In this document: in pieces, positions 8,268-56,851 of the stretch
How the letters are laid out: every line of letters begins with the position of its first letter
Numbering within the stretch: position 1 is the stretch's first letter
Assembly: GCF_024502345.1 (NCBI RefSeq)
Contig: NZ_JALDNN010000001.1
Length of the DNA stretch: 64,000 nucleotides
Direction: 5' to 3' (one strand)
From: Escherichia coli
GTDB lineage: Bacteria > Pseudomonadota > Gammaproteobacteria > Enterobacterales > Enterobacteriaceae
Notes under the pieces: generated by a model
Seen by the model: only the letters and a program-made list of their open reading frames with translations
Told to the model about the DNA's origin: nothing
Database searches by the model: none
Made by a program: the position numbers and the translations under genes

Positions 8268-9324
8268 GGCTTTGTTGAATAAATCGAACTTTTGCTGAGT
8301 TGAAGGATCAGATCACGTATCTTCCCGACAACGCAGACCGTTCCGTGGCAAAGCAAAAGTTCAAAATCACCAACTGGCCCACCTACAATAAAGCCCTCAT
8401 CAACCGTGGCTCCATAACTTTCTGGCTGGATGATGAAGCTATTCAGGCCTGGTATGAGTCAGCAACACCTTCTTCACGAGGCAGACCTCAGCGCTATTCT
8501 GACCTTGCCATCACGACTGTGCTGGTCATTAAACGCGTATTCAGGCTGACCCTGCGCGCTGCGCAGGGCTTTATTGATTCCATTTTTTCTCTGATGAACG
8601 TTCCGCTACGCTGCCCGGATTACAGCTGTGTCAGCAGGCGGGCAAAGTCGGTTAATGTCAGTTTCAAAACGCCCACCCGGGGTGAAATCGCACACCTGGT
8701 AATTGATTCCACCGGGCTGAAGGTCTTCGGTGAAGGCGAGTGGAAAGTCAAAAAGCATGGCCAGGAACGCCGCCGTATCTGGCGTAAGCTGCATCTCGCC
8801 GTTGACAGTAAAACACATGAAATCATCTGCGCTGACCTGTCGCTGAACAACGTTACGGACTCAGAGGCCTTCCCCGGGTTAATCCGGCAAACCCACCGGA
8901 AAATCAGGTCAGCCGCCGCCGATGGCGCTTACGATACCCGGCTATGTCACGATGAACTGCGGCGTAAGAAAATCAGCGCGCTTATCCCTCCCCGAAAAGG
9001 TGCGGGTTACTGGCCCGGTGAATATGCAGACCGTAACCGTGCAGTGGCTAATCAGCGAATGACCGGGAGTAATGCGCGGTGGAAATGGACAACAGATTAC
9101 AACCGTCGCTCGATAGCGGAAACGGCGATGTACCGGGTAAAACAGCTGTTCGGGGGTTCACTGACACTGCGTGACTACGATGGTCAGGTTGCAGAGGCTA
9201 TGGCCCTGGTACGAGCGCTGAACAAAATGACGAAAGCAGGTATGCCTGAAAGCGTGCGTATTGCCTGAAAACACAACCCGCTACGGGGGAGACTTACCCG
9301 AAATCTGATTTATTCAACAAAGCC
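8268..9324 (+). mobile_element. IS903-group (IS5 family) insertion sequence, 1057 bp
   Basis: 18-bp terminal inverted repeats GGCTTTGTTGAATAAATC (8268-8285) and reverse complement (9307-9324); single transposase ORF; 9-bp direct target duplication; length and repeat sizes match IS903/IS102-type elements. Confidence 0.85.
8300..9268 (+). CDS. IS903-group DDE transposase
   Basis: 322-aa ORF (TTG start in track) MKDQITYLPDNADRSVAKQKFKITNWPTYNKALINRGSITFWLDDEAIQAWY...; recognised as IS5-family/IS903-group transposase. Confidence 0.85.
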   Translation: MKDQITYLPDNADRSVAKQKFKITNWPTYNKALINRGSITFWLDDEAIQAWYESATPSSRGRPQRYSDLAITTVLVIKRVFRLTLRAAQGFIDSIFSLMNVPLRCPDYSCVSRRAKSVNVSFKTPTRGEIAHLVIDSTGLKVFGEGEWKVKKHGQERRRIWRKLHLAVDSKTHEIICADLSLNNVTDSEAFPGLIRQTHRKIRSAAADGAYDTRLCHDELRRKKISALIPPRKGAGYWPGEYADRNRAVANQRMTGSNARWKWTTDYNRRSIAETAMYRVKQLFGGSLTLRDYDGQVAEAMALVRALNKMTKAGMPESVRIA

Positions 9325-11215: not shown

Positions 11216-11382
11216 GTAAAATACAGAGTCATTATACGTAATTTATTATCACTCTAGATAATTTGTATTCATCATAAATAATTGATGCGGAAAGAGATAT
11301 TTATTTTTTATTGGCTCGCATTGTATCATCAGTTATCAGTTACTCCCTGCATACAGTTGTCAAAAAGGTTGTCATTAACTCT

Positions 11383-11481
11383 ATGGCCGAAAATAAACTC
11401 TCAGATGTTCAATTGCGTGCGTTAACCCGCAAAGTCATCGAAAAACCTTTTGATGTTGCTGACGGTGGCCAAGTTGGGTGA
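11383..11481 (+). pseudogene. Putative integrase N-terminal (arm-binding domain) remnant, 32 codons then stop
   Basis: MAENKLSDVQLRALTRKVIEKPFDVADGGQVG* resembles the KLTD..R..KP....DGGG N-terminal motif of tyrosine integrases; followed by a hairpin plus T7 run at about 11570-11600. Confidence 0.35.
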
Positions 11482-11610
11482 AAACCTGCTATGCAGCTAC
11501 CGCATAAGGGTAGTGGATTCCGCTGAAATCTTGCCGTTCATCCGATCATAACATCACAACAGTTGTTGCCCATTACCCTGGCGAATGCCGGGGCTTTTTT
11601 TATTTTCAAA

Positions 11611-11923
11611 GTGACGCCTAGGTGTCATTAATTTATAAGGTGTCATGGTAGGTGTCATTGTTCTCAAGCCATAACCCGCAAGGGTTGCGACATTACTAAT
11701 GACACCTATGACACCTATGACAGCATTTTTAAAGAAAATAACGACCACTGTAATAATGTAACAGTGGTCGTTATACTTTATAGAAATGGGTGTCATGGTG
11801 TCACAGGTGTCATTCATTACAGTATCTTGTTTGTATTTTTCTTTAATAATCAGCGTGTTTCCCGCTATGACACCTAATGACACCTTTCCAACATAACGCC
11901 GTCATGGTGACATTAGGTGTCAT
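11611..11923. repeat. Iteron-like array: at least 11 copies of the 9-mer AGGTGTCAT / ATGACACCT in both orientations
   Basis: Forward copies at 11620, 11638, 11650, 11789, 11797 (variant), 11805, 11915; reverse copies at 11699, 11708, 11867, 11877; arranged as two similar modules (three forward then two reverse) about 169 bp apart. Confidence 0.8.
11739..11773. repeat. Perfect hairpin/palindrome with 13-bp arms (TAACGACCACTGT / ACAGTGGTCGTTA) and 9-nt AT-rich loop, central to the 9-mer array
   Basis: Read directly from sequence. Confidence 0.8.
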
Positions 11924-12274
11924 CGCCATCTGCTGCCAAAAAAGTCAAGGTACTTCCGAGGGGGGTACAGCCTGCGGGGGCATTGGTCCCGCGTAATTCG
12001 CGTTGTGCGTGCCCCTACAAAACTCACTTTATGATTACGTCAAGTAAATCAATCATTTATGTGAATCCTATCAAAGCACTGGCACCATACGTGCGCGATT
12101 GCAAAATAAAGCGAACACGTTTTACACACGCTGAATTGTAAAGATGTGTAAATATCGATTACGCCGGATTATGCCGGGTTATTTGCAAGTATTCAGGGTT
12201 ATAAGTTACTGATTTTACATTAAAAAGCTCACATTGTGGCTATTGTGTTCGGTCTGGTTACTGTATATCTTTAA

Positions 12275-12991
12275 GTCATTCCAGGCGATTTAGCTGGCCT
12301 GGCGCTGGCAGGTTATCAGATTTACCGCCATTGGGCTGGTGTGAAGGCTTTCTTTGGCGGAGTGGGTGAAGGCATCAAATCCGGGCTGGAACCGCTTAGC
12401 GACGCTCTGAGCCGCCTTTATGAACGCATGGGGCCGCTGAAACCTGTCATTGATGGTGTGGGTGCTGCGGTTAAGACGGTTTTCAACTGGTTCACGTCAT
12501 TGACCGAGCCGGTCAAGTACAGTGGCGAGGAACTGGATAAGGCCGGTAAAATGGGGATGACGTTCGGTAAGACCCTGGCGGCTGGCATCGAGCTTGTGAC
12601 CGCACCGATCACGTTCCTGATTGATAAGATTCTGTGGGTGTCTGACAACATCGGCAACCTGACCAACAAGGCACTGGAGTTTAAAAACGCCGTGTCTGAT
12701 GTTGCTGGTGGTGCGTGGCAGAAAACCAAAGATTTCTTTACCGCACCATTCCGCGACGATGTACAGCAGCCAGCAGCAACCACTGCCTCTGGTGCTGCCC
12801 TGCCGTCACCTGCACTGGCCAACCGCTCTGGTGGCACTACGGTGCATAGCAACGACCAGTACCACATCAGCGTGAAGGCAGAACCTGGTATGAATGAAGA
12901 TGCATTAGCCCGGAAGGTGATACAGCAACTACGACAGCAACAAGCAGTAAGGCAGCGAAGCATGATGATAGATGGCGCGCAAACACCATAA
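12275..12991 (+). pseudogene. 5'-truncated phage tail tape-measure-like protein, C-terminal fragment
   Basis: Open frame from 12275 (stop at 12272 upstream) encodes ...LAGLALAGYQIYRHWAGVKAFFGGVGEGIKSGLEPLSDALSRLYERMGPLKPVIDGVGAAVKTVFNWF...VHSNDQYHISVKAEPGMNEDALARKVIQQLRQQQ; Gly/Ala-rich segments and C-terminal tail typical of tape-measure proteins; no plausible start or RBS for a full gene. Confidence 0.4.
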
Positions 12992-13068
12992 GGGTTGTCA
13001 GTACGGTTGCAACAAAAAGTAAAGGGACTGAAATAGCCCCTTTAATTTCATGCCGTTACAGCTTGACT

Positions 13069-48118: not shown

Positions 48119-49467
48119 TTAATAAAATAGCGTGATTGTGGCAATCATATTCACCACGAAACCGACTGCCATGGGGATCGCTGTCCGCTTCACCACCGCA
48201 AAAGGCGAAACGCCTGCAATTCCTGACGTAACGACTACCACCGCAGTAATCGGCGAAACCGCGCGCGCTAGCGTCGTGGCAAAATGCATCGGCATAATCA
48301 TTACAACCGCTGGTACATGTAGTCCGGCTGCGATATTCGGAATAAGACTGGCAAATGACATAAACGGCGCATTGCCAGAGCCCATCACAATGGCACAAAT
48401 GGCAATGACCAGCGCCATAATAATCATCACGCCAATACCGCCCAGACCAGAATGCTCCGCACCCCTGATAACCGCATCGACAGTGCCAATCGTCGTTAAG
48501 CCTTTCGCAAATATTTCACCCGCGACCACCAGCGTTACGACGTTGGCAAACTGCGTACCCATGCCGTCAAAAAACGCCTGCACATCGTCCATTGTTTCGC
48601 GCAAGTTATGCTTGCGGAAGAACTCAACAAACATCGTCACCGTCAAACTCAGTAACATCACCACCACCAGATGCAGTTCTGACTGCATCAGCCCGATGTG
48701 GGCAAGGAATAGCGAGCCGAGCATCAGGATTAACGGCATCACAGGTAAAATGGCGTAATAGAGCGGCGGGACATTATCGAGAGCTTTTTGCTCTGCCTGT
48801 TCGTGATTGATATTTTTATCTTTTTTGTCAAAAGCGCGTTGCACGAAAAAGTGGGAGATCGCCACCGAGATAATGACGCAAGAGGCGACCGGAAGCTGGT
48901 AGTGGAAGAAGTAAGTGGCAATTTTCATTCCCGCGACCTGGGCTGCAAAAATGGAGTTCGTTTCCAGAATCCCCCACTCAATGGACATTGTGGTTGCGAT
49001 AACCGCCACCGCAGAGAGACGGCTTACTCCCAGACTCACCAGTGTCGGAAATAAGGTGACCATCAGCAACATACCCAGGCCGGAGGCGCTGGTAATAAAC
49101 TGCGCCATGATTTGGCCGATGACGTAAGTTGCCGACAGAATAATATACGGCGAGCGAATGAGTTTTAACGGGCGGCTTAACAAGCTCACCATCGCGCGAC
49201 TGGCTCCTGTGCGCTCCATGTAGCGGGCATAACCGCCCACCGCCATAATCGACAGCCCCAATCCGGCAATGCGGTTGGACAGCATGCGCAGGATTTCATT
49301 ATAAATATCGACGATCAAGTAGCCGCTGCTTTTGGCGGGATCGAGTACACCACCGAACCCTAACCAGACACCGCACATCATCAGGAAGATACCTGCGGCA
49401 GCCAGCACCACCTGAGGTTTGTAGTTTTTCAGGATCAAATAGCCCATCGTAATTAATACGATGACAG
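48119..49467 (-). pseudogene. dcuD: C4-dicarboxylate transporter DcuD, 5' end replaced by IS1
   Basis: Reverse-strand frame is open from the IS1 boundary: ...[33 protein letters not shown]...; upstream start region and first codons absent. Confidence 0.8.
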
Positions 49468-49522
49468 GGTGATGCTGCCAACTTACTGATTTAGTGTATG
49501 ATGGTGTTTTTGAGGTGCTCCA

Positions 49523-49798
49523 GTGGCTTCTGTTTCTATCAGCTGTCCCTCCTGTTCAGCTACTGACGGGGTGGTGCGTAACGGCAAAAGCACCGCCGGA
49601 CATCAGCGCTATCTCTGCTCTCACTGCCGTAAAACATGGCAACTGCAGTTCACTTACACCGCTTCTCAACCCGGTACGCACCAGAAAATCATTGATATGG
49701 CCATGAATGGCGTTGGATGCCGGGCAACCGCCCGCATTATGGGCGTTGGCCTCAACACGATTTTCCGCCATTTAAAAAACTCAGGCCGCAGTCGGTAA
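49523..49798 (+). CDS. insA: IS1 protein InsA
   Basis: [91 protein letters not shown]. Confidence 0.95.
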
Positions 49799-50220
49799 CC
49801 TCGCGCATACAGCCGGGCAGTGACGTCATCGTCTGCGCGGAAATGGACGAACAGTGGGGATACGTCGGGGCTAAATCGCGCCAGCGCTGGCTGTTTTACG
49901 CGTATGACAGGCTCCGGAAGACGGTTGTTGCGCACGTATTCGGTGAACGCACTATGGCGACGCTGGGGCGTCTTATGAGCCTGCTGTCACCCTTTGACGT
50001 GGTGATATGGATGACGGATGGCTGGCCGCTGTATGAATCCCGCCTGAAGGGAAAGCTGCACGTAATCAGCAAGCGATATACGCAGCGAATTGAGCGGCAT
50101 AACCTGAATCTGAGGCAGCACCTGGCACGGCTGGGACGGAAGTCGCTGTCGTTCTCAAAATCGGTGGAGCTGCATGACAAAGTCATCGGGCATTATCTGA
50201 ACATAAAACACTATCAATAA
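49717..50220 (+). CDS. insB: IS1 InsB frame (expressed as InsAB' transposase by -1 frameshift)
   Basis: ORF ...[62 protein letters not shown]... Confidence 0.9.
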
Positions 50221-50315
50221 GTTGGAGTCATTACCAGAAAACCCTGCCATTTTCCCCTACTTTCAATCCTGTGATAGGATGTCACTGATGATGTTAATCA
50301 CACTGACCTTACAGA

Positions 50316-51107
50316 ATGGGCCTTATGAACGCATTTGATTCGCAAACCGAAGATTCTTCACCTGCAATTGGTCGCAACTTGCGTAGCCGCCCGCTGGCGC
50401 GTAAAAAACTCTCCGAAATGGTGGAAGAAGAGCTGGAACAGATGATCCGCCGTCGTGAATTTGGCGAAGGTGAACAATTACCGTCTGAACGCGAACTGAT
50501 GGCGTTCTTTAACGTTGGGCGTCCTTCGGTGCGTGAAGCGCTGGCAGCGTTAAAACGCAAAGGTCTGGTGCAAATAAACAACGGCGAACGTGCCCGCGTC
50601 TCACGTCCTTCTGCGGACACCATCATCGGCGAGCTTTCCGGCATGGCGAAAGATTTCCTTTCTCATCCTGGTGGGATTGCCCATTTCGAACAATTACGTC
50701 TGTTCTTTGAATCCAGCCTGGTGCGCTATGCGGCTGAACACGCCACCGATGAGCAAATCGATTTGCTGGCAAAAGCACTGGAAATCAACAGTCAGTCGCT
50801 GGATAACAACGCGGCATTCATTCGCTCAGACGTTGATTTCCACCGCGTGCTGGCGGAGATCCCAGGTAACCCAATCTTCATGGCGATCCACGTTGCCCTG
50901 CTCGACTGGCTGATCGCCGCACGTCCAACCGTGGCTGATCAGGCTCTGCACGAGCATAACAACGTTAGCTATCAACAGCATATTGCGATCGTTGACGCGA
51001 TCCGCCGCCACGATCCTGACGAAGCCGATCGTGCGTTGCAATCGCATCTCAACAGCGTCTCTGCTACCTGGCACGCCTTCGGTCAGACCACCAACAAAAA
51101 GAAATAA
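50316..51107 (+). CDS. nanR: GntR/FadR-family sialic acid regulon repressor NanR
   Basis: 263-aa [79 protein letters not shown]. Confidence 0.95.
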
Positions 51108-51170: not shown

Positions 51171-51193
51171 GGTATAACAGGTATAAAGGTATA
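51171..51193 (+). promoter_or_regulatory. Nan box: three tandem GGTATA repeats (NanR operator) in the nanA promoter
   Basis: GGTATAacaGGTATAaaGGTATA read directly, 36 bp upstream of nanA start. Confidence 0.8.
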
Positions 51194-51228: not shown

Positions 51229-52122
51229 ATGGCAACGAATTTACGTGGCGTAATGGCTGCACTCCTGACTCCTTTTGATCAACAACAAGCACTGGATAAA
51301 GCGAGTCTGCGCCGCCTGGTTCAGTTCAATATTCAGCAGGGCATTGACGGTTTATACGTGGGTGGTTCGACCGGCGAAGCCTTTGTACAAAGCCTTTCCG
51401 AGCGTGAACAGGTACTGGAAATCGTCGCCGAAGAGGCGAAAGGTAAGATTAAACTCATCGCCCACGTCGGTTGCGTCAGCACCGCCGAAAGCCAACAACT
51501 TGCGGCATCGGCTAAACGTTATGGCTTCGATGCCGTCTCCGCCGTCACACCGTTCTACTATCCTTTCAGCTTTGAAGAACACTGCGATCACTATCGGGCA
51601 ATTATTGATTCGGCGGATGGTTTGCCGATGGTGGTGTACAACATTCCAGCCCTGAGCGGGGTAAAACTGACCCTGGATCAGATCAACACCTTGGTTACGC
51701 TGCCTGGTGTCGGCGCGCTGAAACAGACCTCTGGCGATCTCTATCAGATGGAACAGATCCGTCGTGAACATCCTGATCTGGTGCTCTATAACGGTTACGA
51801 CGAAATCTTCGCTTCCGGCTTGCTGGCGGGCGCAGACGGCGGTATCGGCAGTACTTACAATATCATGGGCTGGCGCTATCAGGGGATCGTGAAGGCGCTG
51901 AAAGAAGGCGATATCCAGACCGCGCAGAAACTGCAAACTGAGTGCAATAAAGTCATTGATTTACTGATCAAAACGGGCGTATTCCGCGGCCTGAAAACTG
52001 TTCTGCATTATATGGATGTTGTTTCTGTGCCGCTGTGCCGCAAACCGTTTGGTCCGGTAGATGAAAAATATCTGCCAGAACTGAAGGCGCTGGCCCAGCA
52101 GTTGATGCAAGAGCGCGGGTGA
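51229..52122 (+). CDS. nanA: N-acetylneuraminate lyase
   Basis: 297-aa [55 protein letters not shown]. Confidence 0.97.
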
Positions 52123-52230
52123 GTTGTTTCCCCTCGCTCGCCCCTACCGGGTGAGGGGAAATAAACGCATCTGTACCCTACAATTTTCATACCAAAGCGT
52201 GTGGGCATCGCCCACCGCGGGAGACTCACA

Positions 52231-53721
52231 ATGAGTACTACAACCCAGAATATCCCGTGGTATCGCCATCTCAATCGTGCACAATGGCGGGCATTTTCCG
52301 TTGCCTGGTTGGGATATCTGCTTGACGGTTTTGATTTCGTTTTAATCGCCCTGGTACTCACCGAAGTACAAGGTGAATTCGGGCTGACGACGGTGCAGGC
52401 GGCAAGTCTGATCTCCGCAGCCTTTATCTCTCGCTGGTTCGGCGGCCTGATGCTCGGCGCTATGGGTGACCGCTACGGGCGTCGTCTGGCAATGGTCACC
52501 AGCATCGTTCTCTTCTCGGCCGGGACGCTGGCCTGCGGCTTTGCGCCAGGCTACATCACCATGTTTATCGCTCGTCTGGTCATCGGCATGGGGATGGCGG
52601 GTGAATACGGTTCCAGCGCCACCTATGTCATTGAAAGCTGGCCAAAACATCTGCGTAACAAAGCCAGTGGCTTTCTGATTTCAGGCTTCTCTGTGGGGGC
52701 CGTCGTTGCCGCTCAGGTCTACAGCTTGGTGGTTCCGGTCTGGGGCTGGCGTGCGCTGTTCTTTATCGGCATTTTGCCAATCATCTTTGCTCTCTGGCTG
52801 CGTAAAAACATCCCGGAAGCGGAAGACTGGAAAGAGAAACACGCAGGTAAAGCACCAGTACGCACAATGGTGGATATTCTCTACCGTGGTGAACATCGCG
52901 TTGCCAATATCGTAATGACACTGGCGGCGGCTACTGCGCTGTGGTTCTGCTTCGCCGGTAACCTGCAAAATGCCGCGATCGTCGCTGTTCTTGGGCTGTT
53001 ATGCGCCGCAATCTTTATCAGCTTTATGGTGCAGAGTACGGGCAAACGCTGGCCAACTGGCGTAATGCTGATGGTGGTCGTGTTGTTTGCTTTCCTCTAC
53101 TCATGGCCGATTCAGGCGCTGCTGCCAACGTATCTGAAAACCGATCTGGCTTATAACCCGCATACTGTCGCCAATGTGCTGTTCTTTAGTGGCTTTGGCG
53201 CGGCGGTGGGGTGCTGCGTCGGTGGCTTCCTCGGTGACTGGCTGGGAACCCGCAAAGCGTACGTTTGTAGTCTGTTGGCCTCGCAGCTGCTGATTATTCC
53301 GGTATTTGCGATTGGCGGTGCAAACGTCTGGGTGCTCGGTCTGTTACTGTTCTTCCAGCAAATGCTTGGACAAGGGATCGCCGGGATCTTACCAAAACTG
53401 ATTGGCGGTTATTTCGATACCGACCAGCGTGCAGCGGGCCTGGGCTTTACCTACAACGTTGGCGCATTGGGCGGTGCACTGGCCCCAATCATCGGCGCGT
53501 TGATCGCTCAACGTCTGGATCTGGGTACTGCGCTGGCATCGCTCTCGTTCAGTCTGACATTTGTGGTGATCCTGCTGATTGGTCTGGATATGCCTTCCCG
53601 CGTTCAGCGTTGGCTGCGCCTGGAAGCATTGCGTACTCATGACGCTATCGACGGCAAACCATTTAGCGGTGCCGTGCCATTTGGCAGCGCCAAAAACGAT
53701 TTAGTCAAAACCAAAAGTTAA
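52231..53721 (+). CDS. nanT: Sialic acid MFS transporter NanT
   Basis: [46 protein letters not shown]...; track ORF extended upstream. Confidence 0.96.
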
Positions 53722-53768
53722 TCCTGTTGCCCGGTCTATGTACCGGGCCTTTCGCTAAGGGAAGATGT

Positions 53769-54454
53769 ATGTCGTTACTTGCACAACTGGATCAAAAAAT
53801 CGCTGCTAACGGTGGCCTGATTGTCTCCTGCCAGCCGGTTCCTGACAGCCCGCTCGATAAACCCGAAATCGTCGCAGCCATGGCATTAGCGGCAGAGCAG
53901 GCGGGCGCGGTTGCCATTCGCATCGAAGGTGTGGCAAATCTGCAAGCCACGCGTGCGGTGGTGAGCGTGCCGATTATTGGAATTGTGAAACGCGATCTGG
54001 AGGATTCTCCGGTACGCATCACGGCCTATATTGAAGATGTCGATGCGCTGGCGCAGGCGGGCGCGGACATTATCGCCATTGACGGCACCGACCGCCCGCG
54101 TCCGGTGCCTGTTGAAACGCTGCTGGCACGTATTCATCATCACGGTTTACTGGCGATGACCGACTGCTCAACGCCGGAAGACGGCCTGGCATGCCAAAAG
54201 CTGGGAGCCGAAATTATTGGCACTACGCTTTCTGGCTATACCACGCCTGAAACGCCAGAAGAGCCGGATCTGACGCTGGTGAAAAGGTTGAGCGACGCCG
54301 GATGTCGGGTGATTGCCGAAGGGCGTTACAACACGCCTGCTCAGGCGGCTGATGCGATGCGCCACGGCGCGTGGGCGGTGACGGTCGGTTCTGCCATTAC
54401 GCGTCTTGAACACATTTGTCAGTGGTACAACACAGCGATGAAAAAGGCGGTGCT

Positions 54455-54458
<4 letters not shown>
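53769..54458 (+). CDS. nanE: N-acetylmannosamine-6-phosphate 2-epimerase
   Basis: [54 protein letters not shown]... Confidence 0.96.
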
Positions 54459-55791
<1,333 letters not shown>

Positions 55792-55866
55792 ATTTATTAG
55801 ATCAGGCGTGACCTGACCCATCTTTGGCACAGAGCCAAACCTGAACTGACGGACCGCTCTGTGCCA

Positions 55867-56208
55867 TTACCTGACGTTGTATTCTTTTATGTTAACACCC
55901 TTGATACTGTATATACCTGTCCGCTTAATTCGCTTGCCCTTTTTATTCGTAATAGTTGCTGTAAGTGTACTGCAGCGAATGGAATGACGTTCATCAATCA
56001 CCAGCCGAATTGCTTCTGAAGCATCTTCCACCTCTAGAAGGTCGTGAGTCTTATTTAAGCCGAATGGAACAAGGTGGAAGGCAGTTTTTCCTGATGATTT
56101 TCTGGTTATTTTTACTGGATACAACACATCACCACTTTTATGGATTAATTCAAGCTGTTCAATGTAAATCATGGCAACTTTCCTTCGTTTATTTGCATGA
56201 ATATACAA
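55867..56208 (-). CDS. Hypothetical small protein (101-113 aa) in AT-rich DNA, not recognised
   Basis: ORF MYIHANKRRKVAMIYIEQLELIHKSGDVLYPVKITRKSSGKTAFHLVPFGLNKTHDLLEVEDASEAIRLVIDERHSIRC...; low-GC context; alternative start at MIYIEQ (56172). Confidence 0.3.
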   Translation of the reverse strand: MYIHANKRRKVAMIYIEQLELIHKSGDVLYPVKITRKSSGKTAFHLVPFGLNKTHDLLEVEDASEAIRLVIDERHSIRCSTLTATITNKKGKRIKRTGIYSIKGVNIKEYNVR

Positions 56209-56668
56209 ACCGAAAATAGGAGATGCAATACAAAAGCTGTGGAAATATCAAACAGCCTCTCAATTTGGCAGACAGCGTCTGCCAAATCTTTGCCGATGGG
56301 AATTCTGCAGATGGTGTCTGCGGAATTCCCAATGGTGTTAATTCGCCAGACACTGTCTGGCGAATTTCAACATGTTGAAAAAAGAGGTAAAAAAGCCTCA
56401 TTTGGCGTAAGTTTTTTGCAGAGAACCCACGCTTATACCTTAGACTTAAATCCTTTGATAGTCGCTTGATTAGCTGCGCACCATACGCAGCCCTTGCCTC
56501 GCCACCTTGTTCAAATTCGACAATTCGTCGGCCAATTTCCCAGTATGTCGCGGTCATCAGCGCGTTAACGCTACGTACCGTTTCCGTCCGGACGCTATCG
56601 ACCAGGTGAATAATATCGTCGTGGATTTGCTGGTAGCCTGTTGAGGTTCTCTCTGAGAGCGATTCCAT
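56189..56668 (-). pseudogene. yhcG: YhcG-like (DUF1016 N-terminal domain) fragment, terminated after a palindromic repeat cluster
   Basis: ...TATYWEIGRRIVEFEQGGEARAAYGAQLIKRLSKDLSLRYKRGFSAKNLRQMRLFY... resembles the DUF1016/YhcG N-terminal motif; ORF is only 159 aa and its C-terminal third is encoded by three palindromes. Confidence 0.5.
56263..56366. repeat. Three tandem palindromes at exact 39-bp centre-to-centre spacing sharing a GCAGAC/GTCTGC-type core
   Basis: U1 56263-56287 ATTTGGCAGACagcGTCTGCCAAAT (perfect); U2 56298-56330 GGGAATTCTGCAGAtggtgTCTGCGGAATTCCC (one mismatch); U3 56340-56366 AATTCGCCAGACAcTGTCTGGCGAATT (perfect). Confidence 0.85.
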
Positions 56669-56851
56669 TATCTGTCCCTTTATATGGCGCTGCGTTGAAT
56701 AATGGAATCAGCTATACGCCGGGCATCTACCGGTAACAATCCAGATGAGCGTATTACATTGGTTTTCTTCAGATTATGCGAGGCGCTTTCCAGAAAGAAA
56801 GGAGAATTTCAGCGCCGACTCTTTTCTGAGGAGGCGGCGCTGGGACAGAGC

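Follow-up and report, generated by a model that had tools for sequence, protein, structure and literature searches.

An IS1 element replaces the 5' end of dcuD upstream of nanR in Escherichia coli: a deletion at a recurrent IS1 target

Deletion of the DNA adjacent to a resident IS1 is a phenomenon known since the 1970s, and Reif and Saedler are said to have reported such deletions in 1975 in the classical gal and lac studies. In the textbook pattern of adjacent deletion mediated by an insertion sequence, the endpoint at the element stays the same and the distal ones vary. Deletions of rbs associated with IS150 were reportedly recovered by Cooper et al. in 2001 in the long-term evolution experiment with E. 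coli, with a measured fitness benefit. Insertion sequences upstream of silenced or weakly expressed operons also act on regulation, as in the activation of bgl and at flhDC. At the dcuD-nanR spacer itself, an insertion of IS5 became fixed during laboratory evolution, and its authors group it with mutations of nan regulation. The locus described here was found in a window of 64,000 nucleotides, the whole stretch of E. coli DNA that was analysed (NCBI RefSeq assembly GCF_024502345.1, contig NZ_JALDNN010000001.1), and its structure belongs among the IS1-associated adjacent deletions, an ordinary type of event.

The IS1 element, its flanks and the missing DNA

The window carries an E. coli-type chromosomal gene order (rplM-rpsI-sspAB-dcuD / nanR-nanATEK-nanQ-gltDB), colinear with K-12 MG1655 at 97-99% identity, and the best-matching complete genome is 99.3-99.4% identical to it over 24 kb. 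Junctions are compared between genomes in MGrc coordinates, which are those of the reverse complement of the reference locus (L005, MG1655 3,370,500-3,377,000) in the orientation of the window, the genome position being 3,377,001 minus the MGrc value. On this scale the ATG of dcuD, a gene that runs leftwards, lies at 2132 and that of nanR at 2512, with a spacer of 379 bp between them in MG1655. The features of the locus in the window are collected in Table 1.

Table 1. Positions of the features of the dcuD-nanR locus in the window
Feature	Position	Strand	Remarks
5'-truncated dcuD, DcuC-family C4-dicarboxylate carrier	48119-49467	-	Pfam PF03606, profile positions 13-460 of 461
Short palindrome, stem catcgta/tacgatg	49444-49464	-	dcuD codons 8-14; overlaps hot-spot target
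Left flank cgatgacag	49459-49467		One copy of progenitor 9-bp duplication CGATGACAG; IS1 hot-spot target
Complete IS1, IS1B-like allele	49468-50235, 768 bp	+	Transposase reads toward nanR
IRL ggtgatgctgccaacttactgat	49468-49490		IS1 left terminus
insA	49523-49798	+	Frame intact
A6C frameshift motif	49774-49780		
insB' frame	ends 50220	+	Intact
IRR atcaataagttggagtcattacc	50213-50235		IS1 right terminus
Right flank agaaaaccc	50236-50244		
Retained native nanR upstream DNA	50236-50315, 80 bp	+	MG1655 3,374,569-3,374,490
Putative nanR core promoter	50252-50280	+	-35-like ttcccc 50252-50257, 17-bp spacer, TG 50272-50273, -10 taggat 50275-50280
nanR, GntR/FCD sialic-acid repressor	50316-51107	+	Intact, 263 aa
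NanR operator, three GGTATA repeats, upstream of nanA	51171-51193	+	Intact, read from sequence
nanA, nanT, nanE, nanK, nanQ (yhcH)	51229-55791	+	Frames all intact; MG1655-colinear, 97.3% identity

The element is a bona fide IS1 that shows every defining feature except the target duplication. It has the size of the family and its imperfect terminal inverted repeats of about 23 bp (GGTGATGCTGCCAACTTACTGAT / GGTAATGACTCCAACTTATTGAT), and it has insA and insB' joined by a -1 frameshift at the A6C motif, together with the InsA zinc-ribbon/HTH and DDE_Tnp_IS1 domains (Pfam PF03811, PF12759 and PF03400, with E-values of 1e-21 to 1e-78). Its identity to annotated IS1A or IS1B copies is 99-100%, and it differs by 1 nt from the IS1 of EC31, CFSAN061770 and JX21CE35. 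The initial annotation had placed a complete IS1 against the dcuD frame within its first codons, and the boundaries bear this out, the left flank being in frame with dcuD and beginning at the second base of codon 7. It had also held that the 9 bp on either side of the element differ. On realignment the two 9-bp flanks are indeed unrelated, and the search for a direct repeat around the element, 8-bp offsets included, gave no match. The 8-9 bp duplication that marks a simple IS1 insertion is thus lacking in the window, as would be expected of a deletion derivative, the same site being duplicated in five other genomes.

Alignment with MG1655 gives the size of what is missing. The left flank ends at 3,374,888 (MGrc 2113), and the sequence is picked up again by the right flank at 3,374,569 (MGrc 2432), such that the window lacks the 318 bp at MG1655 3,374,570-3,374,887 and colinearity with K-12 is broken between the flanks. 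The lost DNA, whose A+T content is 70-82%, consists of 19 nt of the dcuD coding sequence and 299 of the 379 intergenic bp, in agreement with the earlier proposal that the start and promoter of dcuD and part of the intergenic region had been removed, and it is bounded by IRR, so that the deletion starts exactly at the terminus of the element. The distance first given from IS1 to the nanR start, 80 bp, is exact when counted to the annotated ATG at 50316. The two observations that would have refuted the initial reading, a matching duplication and flanks colinear with K-12, were both looked for and neither was found. An alternative by which the 318 bp represent a lineage-specific indel that was later hit by IS1 was rejected, as the tract begins on its left within the coding sequence of dcuD; the boundaries of the dcuD absence of the E. 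albertii type are, moreover, quite different.

Codons 1-6 of dcuD and the first base of codon 7 are gone, along with the promoter, and the longest open reading frame left starts at Met14 (ATG at 49447) and encodes 442 aa, as against the 455 aa of K-12 dcuD (1368 nt). The complete frame, native start codon and promoter of a functional dcuD are therefore all missing, and the consensus promoter scan of the window found no promoter-like site facing dcuD from within IS1. Annotation pipelines nevertheless label the 442-aa remnant as an intact DcuC transporter despite the missing start and promoter. As dcuD is reported to be unexpressed in most conditions tested and to have no known physiological role (PMC6414658, citing Janausch and Unden, 1999), its loss was probably without cost. 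The short palindrome near the new end of the frame was flagged as a hairpin, and in Citrobacter it persists with both arms changed; that it plays some role in the targeting of IS1 would be speculation.

IS1 alleles of the locus and the origin of the deletion

When 5,426 complete E. coli genomes were searched with junction-specific queries, each query returned 36-40 matches, all with IS1 at or beside the locus, and every junction was mapped in 24 loci retrieved out of these matches. A simple insertion at 2105-2113, flanked by the 9-bp duplication CGATGACAG, is present in the orientation of the window in 20AR0300, GPEC206-621, GmM062 and QEC11-421, and in the opposite orientation in FDAARGOS_1282. 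Further simple insertions with a duplication lie at 2055-2063 (T2), 2087-2095 (TUM14664), 2141-2149 (WP2-W18-CRE-03), 2225-2233 (PCP06171), 2297-2305 (FORC_031), 2397-2405 (EC31) and 2443-2451 (EP91B), and at 2433-2440, where the duplication is 8 bp, in the K-12 derivative C3026 and, oppositely oriented, in AR24.2b. Forms without a duplication join 2113 to 2432 in the window, to 2418 in FDAARGOS_943 and to 2430 in LR-48, and, with IS1 inverted, to 2433 in JX21CE35 and to 2436 in PRO_A-1443 and fS25a. CFSAN061770 joins 2144/2147 to 2397, also with no duplication, and QDFD216 carries IS1 at 2113, then 3.5 kb of foreign DNA and a second IS1 in direct orientation that abuts 2427. In three further genomes the entire nan operon is lost, the junctions running from 2113 to a yhcG remnant in LR881940, from 2113 to the gltF region in TOE3, and from about 2191 to the gltD-gltF spacer in WEM25.

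The left junction and the orientation of IS1 in the window are those of the four simple insertions named above and, because these progenitor-type genomes carry the duplication, the left flank in the window can be read as one copy of CGATGACAG, whose partner copy has been lost together with the 318 bp that followed it. The distal endpoints that share 2113 form a nested set (2418, 2427, 2430, 2432, 2433, 2436, the yhcG remnant and the gltF region), and nested deletions with a common endpoint at 2113 are the signature of an adjacent deletion mediated by an insertion sequence. The nanR-side endpoints lie in turn where independent simple insertions cluster, those of C3026 and AR24.2b (2433-2440) and of EP91B (2443-2451). 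The nearest relative of the window at this locus is FDAARGOS_943, with flank mismatches of 0/1900 on the left and 1/1700 on the right, as against at least 17 per side in all other genomes; it has the junction at 2113 in common with the window and a right junction 14 bp off, and its IS1 is IS1A-like, differing from the IS1B-like copy of the window at 7 sites between positions 262 and 444.

From these alleles we infer both an order of events and a mechanism of transposition. It is rather probable that an ancestral dcuD::IS1 came first and that a deletion from its IRR side toward nanR followed by intramolecular transposition. In the ancestor, a simple IS1 with its transposase reading toward nanR would have lain within codons 4-7 of dcuD, flanked by the duplication CGATGACAG. 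A later transposition event from the IRR end may then have targeted an insertion-prone stretch just upstream of the nanR promoter, removing the second copy of the duplication and the 318 bp, 327 bp in total. A single IS1 would have remained, joined on its left as before and on its right at a new place. Intramolecular transposition, classically called adjacent deletion, would be the likeliest of the routes. An ancestral insertion at 2113 followed by rightward deletion is favoured by parsimony, since the window and FDAARGOS_943 are then accounted for by one insertion and two deletions in place of two of each, by the distinctive left-end IS1 allele that LR-48 has in common with the progenitor-type QEC11-421, and by the deletions of TOE3 and LR881940, which also start at 2113.

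The initial annotation had offered either an IS1-mediated adjacent deletion or recombination between two IS1 copies, and the progenitors with their duplication and the nested deletions back that pair of routes without choosing within it. It is possible, though less likely, that a second IS1 inserted in direct orientation upstream of nanR (at 2432-2440, with the duplication AGAAAACCC) in a strain already carrying dcuD::IS1, and that homologous recombination between the two copies then removed one IS1 and the DNA between them. QDFD216 has just such a pair of direct copies, at junctions 2113 and 2427, simple insertions have occurred independently at 2433-2440 and 2443-2451, and the genomes involved hold at least 40 copies of IS1 as possible donors. 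Moreover, the difference of 7 sites between the IS1 alleles of the window and FDAARGOS_943 on near-identical flanks is not what plain descent of a single copy would predict and calls for gene conversion or a second IS1, and a hybrid IS1 would account for it. However, no genome was found among those searched in which two IS1 copies are parted only by the native 318 bp, no chimeric pattern is recognisable in the IS1 of the window, where the alleles are informative only at 262-444, and this route needs one event more than a deletion in one step. Both routes yield an identical sequence and are thus indistinguishable in their product.

The events could also have run in reverse, with IS1 inserting first upstream of nanR (2432-2440) and an IRL-mediated leftward deletion ending at 2113. 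CFSAN061770 provides a precedent, being a leftward derivative of an EC31-type insertion at 2397-2405 with the same IS1 allele, and 2113 is a genuine hot target. This order is nevertheless unlikely, for several independent deletions, including those of 6-14 kb in TOE3 and LR881940, would have to end on one and the same nucleotide, and the window and FDAARGOS_943 would require the additional insertion already mentioned. Highly improbable is a deletion that is unreal and owed to the mis-joining of reads across a repeated IS1. The element is a multicopy repeat, the exact structure of the window is absent from the 5,426 complete E. coli genomes, and its right junction was not found in the metagenome contig scan either. 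Against a mis-join, the left junction is reproduced at 100% identity in the independent draft GCA_001484235.1, which confirms that junction only; the flanks are just 318 bp apart in the reference, unlike those of a chimeric join of distant IS1 copies; and structures of this kind, their right junctions no more than 14 bp away, are present in at least seven other finished genomes.

The dcuD-nanR region is an IS1 hot spot. Insertions into the target at 2105-2113 are of both orientations and involve at least five IS1 alleles, 90.9-99.0% identical to the copy of the window, and a second cluster of insertions lies just upstream of nanR, where IS1 has independently entered 2433-2440 in a K-12 laboratory derivative and, oppositely oriented, in natural isolates. 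IS1 is found at the spacer in about 40-45 of the 5,426 complete genomes, in at least 21 distinct structures, whereas only about 5 of them would be expected to have IS1 in any one stretch of 400 bp if the roughly 12 chromosomal IS1 places per genome were spread evenly over 5 Mb, a comparison that holds to an order of magnitude only, owing to clonal inheritance. As 2113 is a hot target in both orientations, common junctions need not mean common ancestry. IS1 prefers A+T-rich DNA, and the A+T-richness of the deleted tract is consistent with this. A likeness of the target to the ends of IS1, in the form of a common ATGAC, was dropped as too short to mean anything. It might further be conjectured that the two hot spots, CGATGACAG at the 5' end of dcuD and the stretch upstream of the nanR promoter, about 320 bp apart, are repeatedly joined by IS1 with loss of the A+T-rich and probably silenced spacer, the nanR core promoter always being spared, and that this repeated outcome, in which nanR-nanATEK is either kept entire with its promoter or lost as a whole, reflects selection in the gut on sialic-acid regulation and not target preference alone, but we regard this as unlikely.

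The nanR promoter and the consequences of the deletion

In the dcuD-bearing Escherichia clades and Citrobacter, the spacer near nanR is poorly conserved except for a block at MGrc 2444-2477. Where dcuD is lacking, as in E. albertii and allies, Salmonella arizonae, C. koseri, Kluyvera, Raoultella, Enterobacter and Edwardsiella, nanR comes directly after the sspB terminator and the motif TGTGnTAnGAT lies at the same distance from nanR. Of 79 enterobacterial species loci, 71 have the pattern TGnTAnnWT at a distance of 32-53 nt before the conserved ATG, where chance would give about 2-3%, and the loci without an exact match mostly have one-base variants. What is conserved is a TG-extended -10 (TGnTAnGAT) with a weak -35 (TTCmCC) 17 bp upstream; in the window, tgaTAGGAT at 50272-50280 has the TGn and the -10 hexamer with A2 and T6 of a sigma-70 extended -10, at a conserved position. 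The block reads as the promoter of nanR, with a transcription start predicted from the motif near 50287. No nanR transcription start was found in the reviews, the NanR structure paper or the genome-wide supplements of transcription start sites that were consulted, the last of which list neither nanR nor dcuD. The consensus promoter scan gave, in the window, only the promoter-like site that IS1 itself has at IRL, and no new promoter at the joint between IS1 and nanR. In K-12 the same scan gave two 9/12 matches inside the deleted tract, and these were rejected as the nanR promoter, the region being poorly conserved and absent where nanR directly follows sspB. The start codon of nanR conserved among species is more likely Met4, at 50325, since the alignment of most orthologues begins at residue 4 and the first codon is ATA in C. 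youngae.

The right end of IS1 lies 16 bp before the -35-like element and all of the promoter elements lie inside the retained 80 bp, such that the core promoter of nanR appears to be retained in the window. The initial annotation had suggested that the nanR promoter may be altered, and this stands in part: native DNA upstream of about -51, the 70-82% A+T tract included, has been replaced by IS1, but the conserved putative core promoter has been kept. Because that promoter-like element lies within the retained DNA, gross loss of nanR expression would not be expected. The level of NanR might be somewhat changed by the loss of A+T-rich upstream DNA or by read-through from IS1, and effects on nanR are possible in view of the IS5 insertion fixed in the same spacer under laboratory evolution; overall, the effect of the deletion on nanR is probably small. 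Among the alleles of the locus, the nanR-side deletion endpoints and simple insertions (2397-2451) all stop short of the promoter element, or else the whole operon is lost. Downstream, nanR, its operator, whose repeat architecture is as described (PMC3658417), and the nan genes are intact, and repression and induction of the nan genes would be expected to be preserved.

Significance and comparison with described systems

Taken singly, the event is minor, as it puts a cryptic transporter gene out of action and probably leaves the promoter of a repressor gene in place. Of wider use is the finding that the dcuD-nanR spacer is a recurrent target of IS1 in natural and laboratory E. coli, so that rearrangements at this place should not serve as markers of shared ancestry. 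The comparison across species further yields a specific and testable position for the nanR promoter, of which no mapped instance was found in the literature consulted. A literature search found no publication on nanR with an IS1 insertion and, as far as could be found, the allele, the recurrence of the locus as a target and the putative nanR promoter appear to be undescribed; they are modest additions.

As at bgl and flhDC, an insertion sequence has here replaced A+T-rich upstream DNA near a promoter, but nothing here points to activation or to a hybrid promoter, and the consensus scan gave no new promoter at the joint of IS1 and nanR. With the laboratory IS5 case the present locus shares the intergenic region that served as target. 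That case, however, involved IS5 and not IS1, entailed no deletion, and arose under artificial selection for NanK activity. The IS150-associated deletions of rbs are similar in that a resident insertion sequence provides the fixed endpoint, that parallel deletions of varying extent into a neighbouring operon recur, and that one-step and two-step routes are ambiguous. Here, the element is IS1 and the locus another one, and the measured fitness benefit belongs to the rbs case. With respect to the IS1 deletions of gal and lac, the present alleles come from natural isolates and not from laboratory selections, their distal endpoints are clustered (2418-2436) at a second insertion cluster and not spread, and the proposed mechanism comes from sequence comparison. 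In all other respects compared the two agree, for IS1 stays in place, one junction is unchanged, the deletion starts at the end of the element, the duplication is lost, and the deletions of independent isolates form a nested series that has one endpoint in common.

Sequence around the dcuD start and nanR

The palindrome near the dcuD start (catcgta..tacgatg), which overlaps the 9-bp hot-spot target used by IS1 in several genomes, is kept in Citrobacter with both arms changed (catcgtt..aacgatg), and these two-arm changes hint that a structure or binding site has been conserved at the beginning of dcuD. The 442-aa dcuD remnant found in comparison loci L001, L002, L006-L009 and others is labelled in RefSeq as an intact "anaerobic C4-dicarboxylate transporter DcuC" and carries no pseudogene flag; either it has lost its native start and promoter, or IS1 lies between them and the remaining frame. 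On the other side of the junction, most nanR orthologues align from Met4 and codon 1 of C. youngae nanR is ATA, and the true nanR start probably lies three codons downstream of the annotated one.

Features of the window and of comparison locus L010 (QDFD216)
Feature	Position	Detail
IS903-like element	window 8268-9324	1,057 bp; near envR 5' end; 322-aa transposase
fis-yhdJ insert	window 11216-13068	1.85 kb; extra relative to K-12
Unmatched part of insert	window, roughly 11216-12290	~1.07 kb
Short palindrome	window 49444-49464	dcuD codons 8-14
Annotated nanR start (MGLMNAF...)	window 50316-50327	
Conserved nanR ATG	window 50325	
yhcG-like remnant	within window 55793-56850	159 aa
Two direct IS1 copies	L010 7141-12181	at same dcuD and nanR junctions

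Other features of the window

At the yhcG-like remnant the window lacks about 7 kb of the K-12 sequence: gltF, the fimbrial genes yhcA-yhcF and a portion of yhcG. gltD follows the remnant almost directly; the IS1 deletion of LR881940, which removed the whole nan operon, has its right end inside this remnant, near window position 56181. The fis-proximal half of the fis-yhdJ insert, which codes for a phage tail tape-measure fragment, also occurs in other E. coli, and the unmatched part found no counterpart in complete E. coli genomes at megablast sensitivity. The IS903-like element in envR, about 94% identical to IS903B, is flanked by a clean 9-bp duplication (GCTCTGAAG), and its junction with envR occurred in none of 5,426 complete E. 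coli genomes. EnvR represses the acrEF efflux genes, and the insertion could derepress them.

The dcuD-nanR region in other genomes

E. albertii and allies (L026, L030 and L031, at approximately locus positions 1420-1500) lack dcuD and the entire 379-bp spacer, with the sspB terminator followed after about 70 bp by nanR; dcuD and the spacer therefore constitute an insertion/deletion polymorphism within the genus. In QDFD216, the two IS1 copies enclose 3.5 kb of foreign DNA containing a gene for a phytase-like esterase as well as pieces of IS66, IS3 and IS5, and a two-IS1 structure of this type is also present in MIN9 and 50EVAW, as judged from search spans. The QDFD216 pair, together with the DNA it encloses, is a composite, transposon-like structure.
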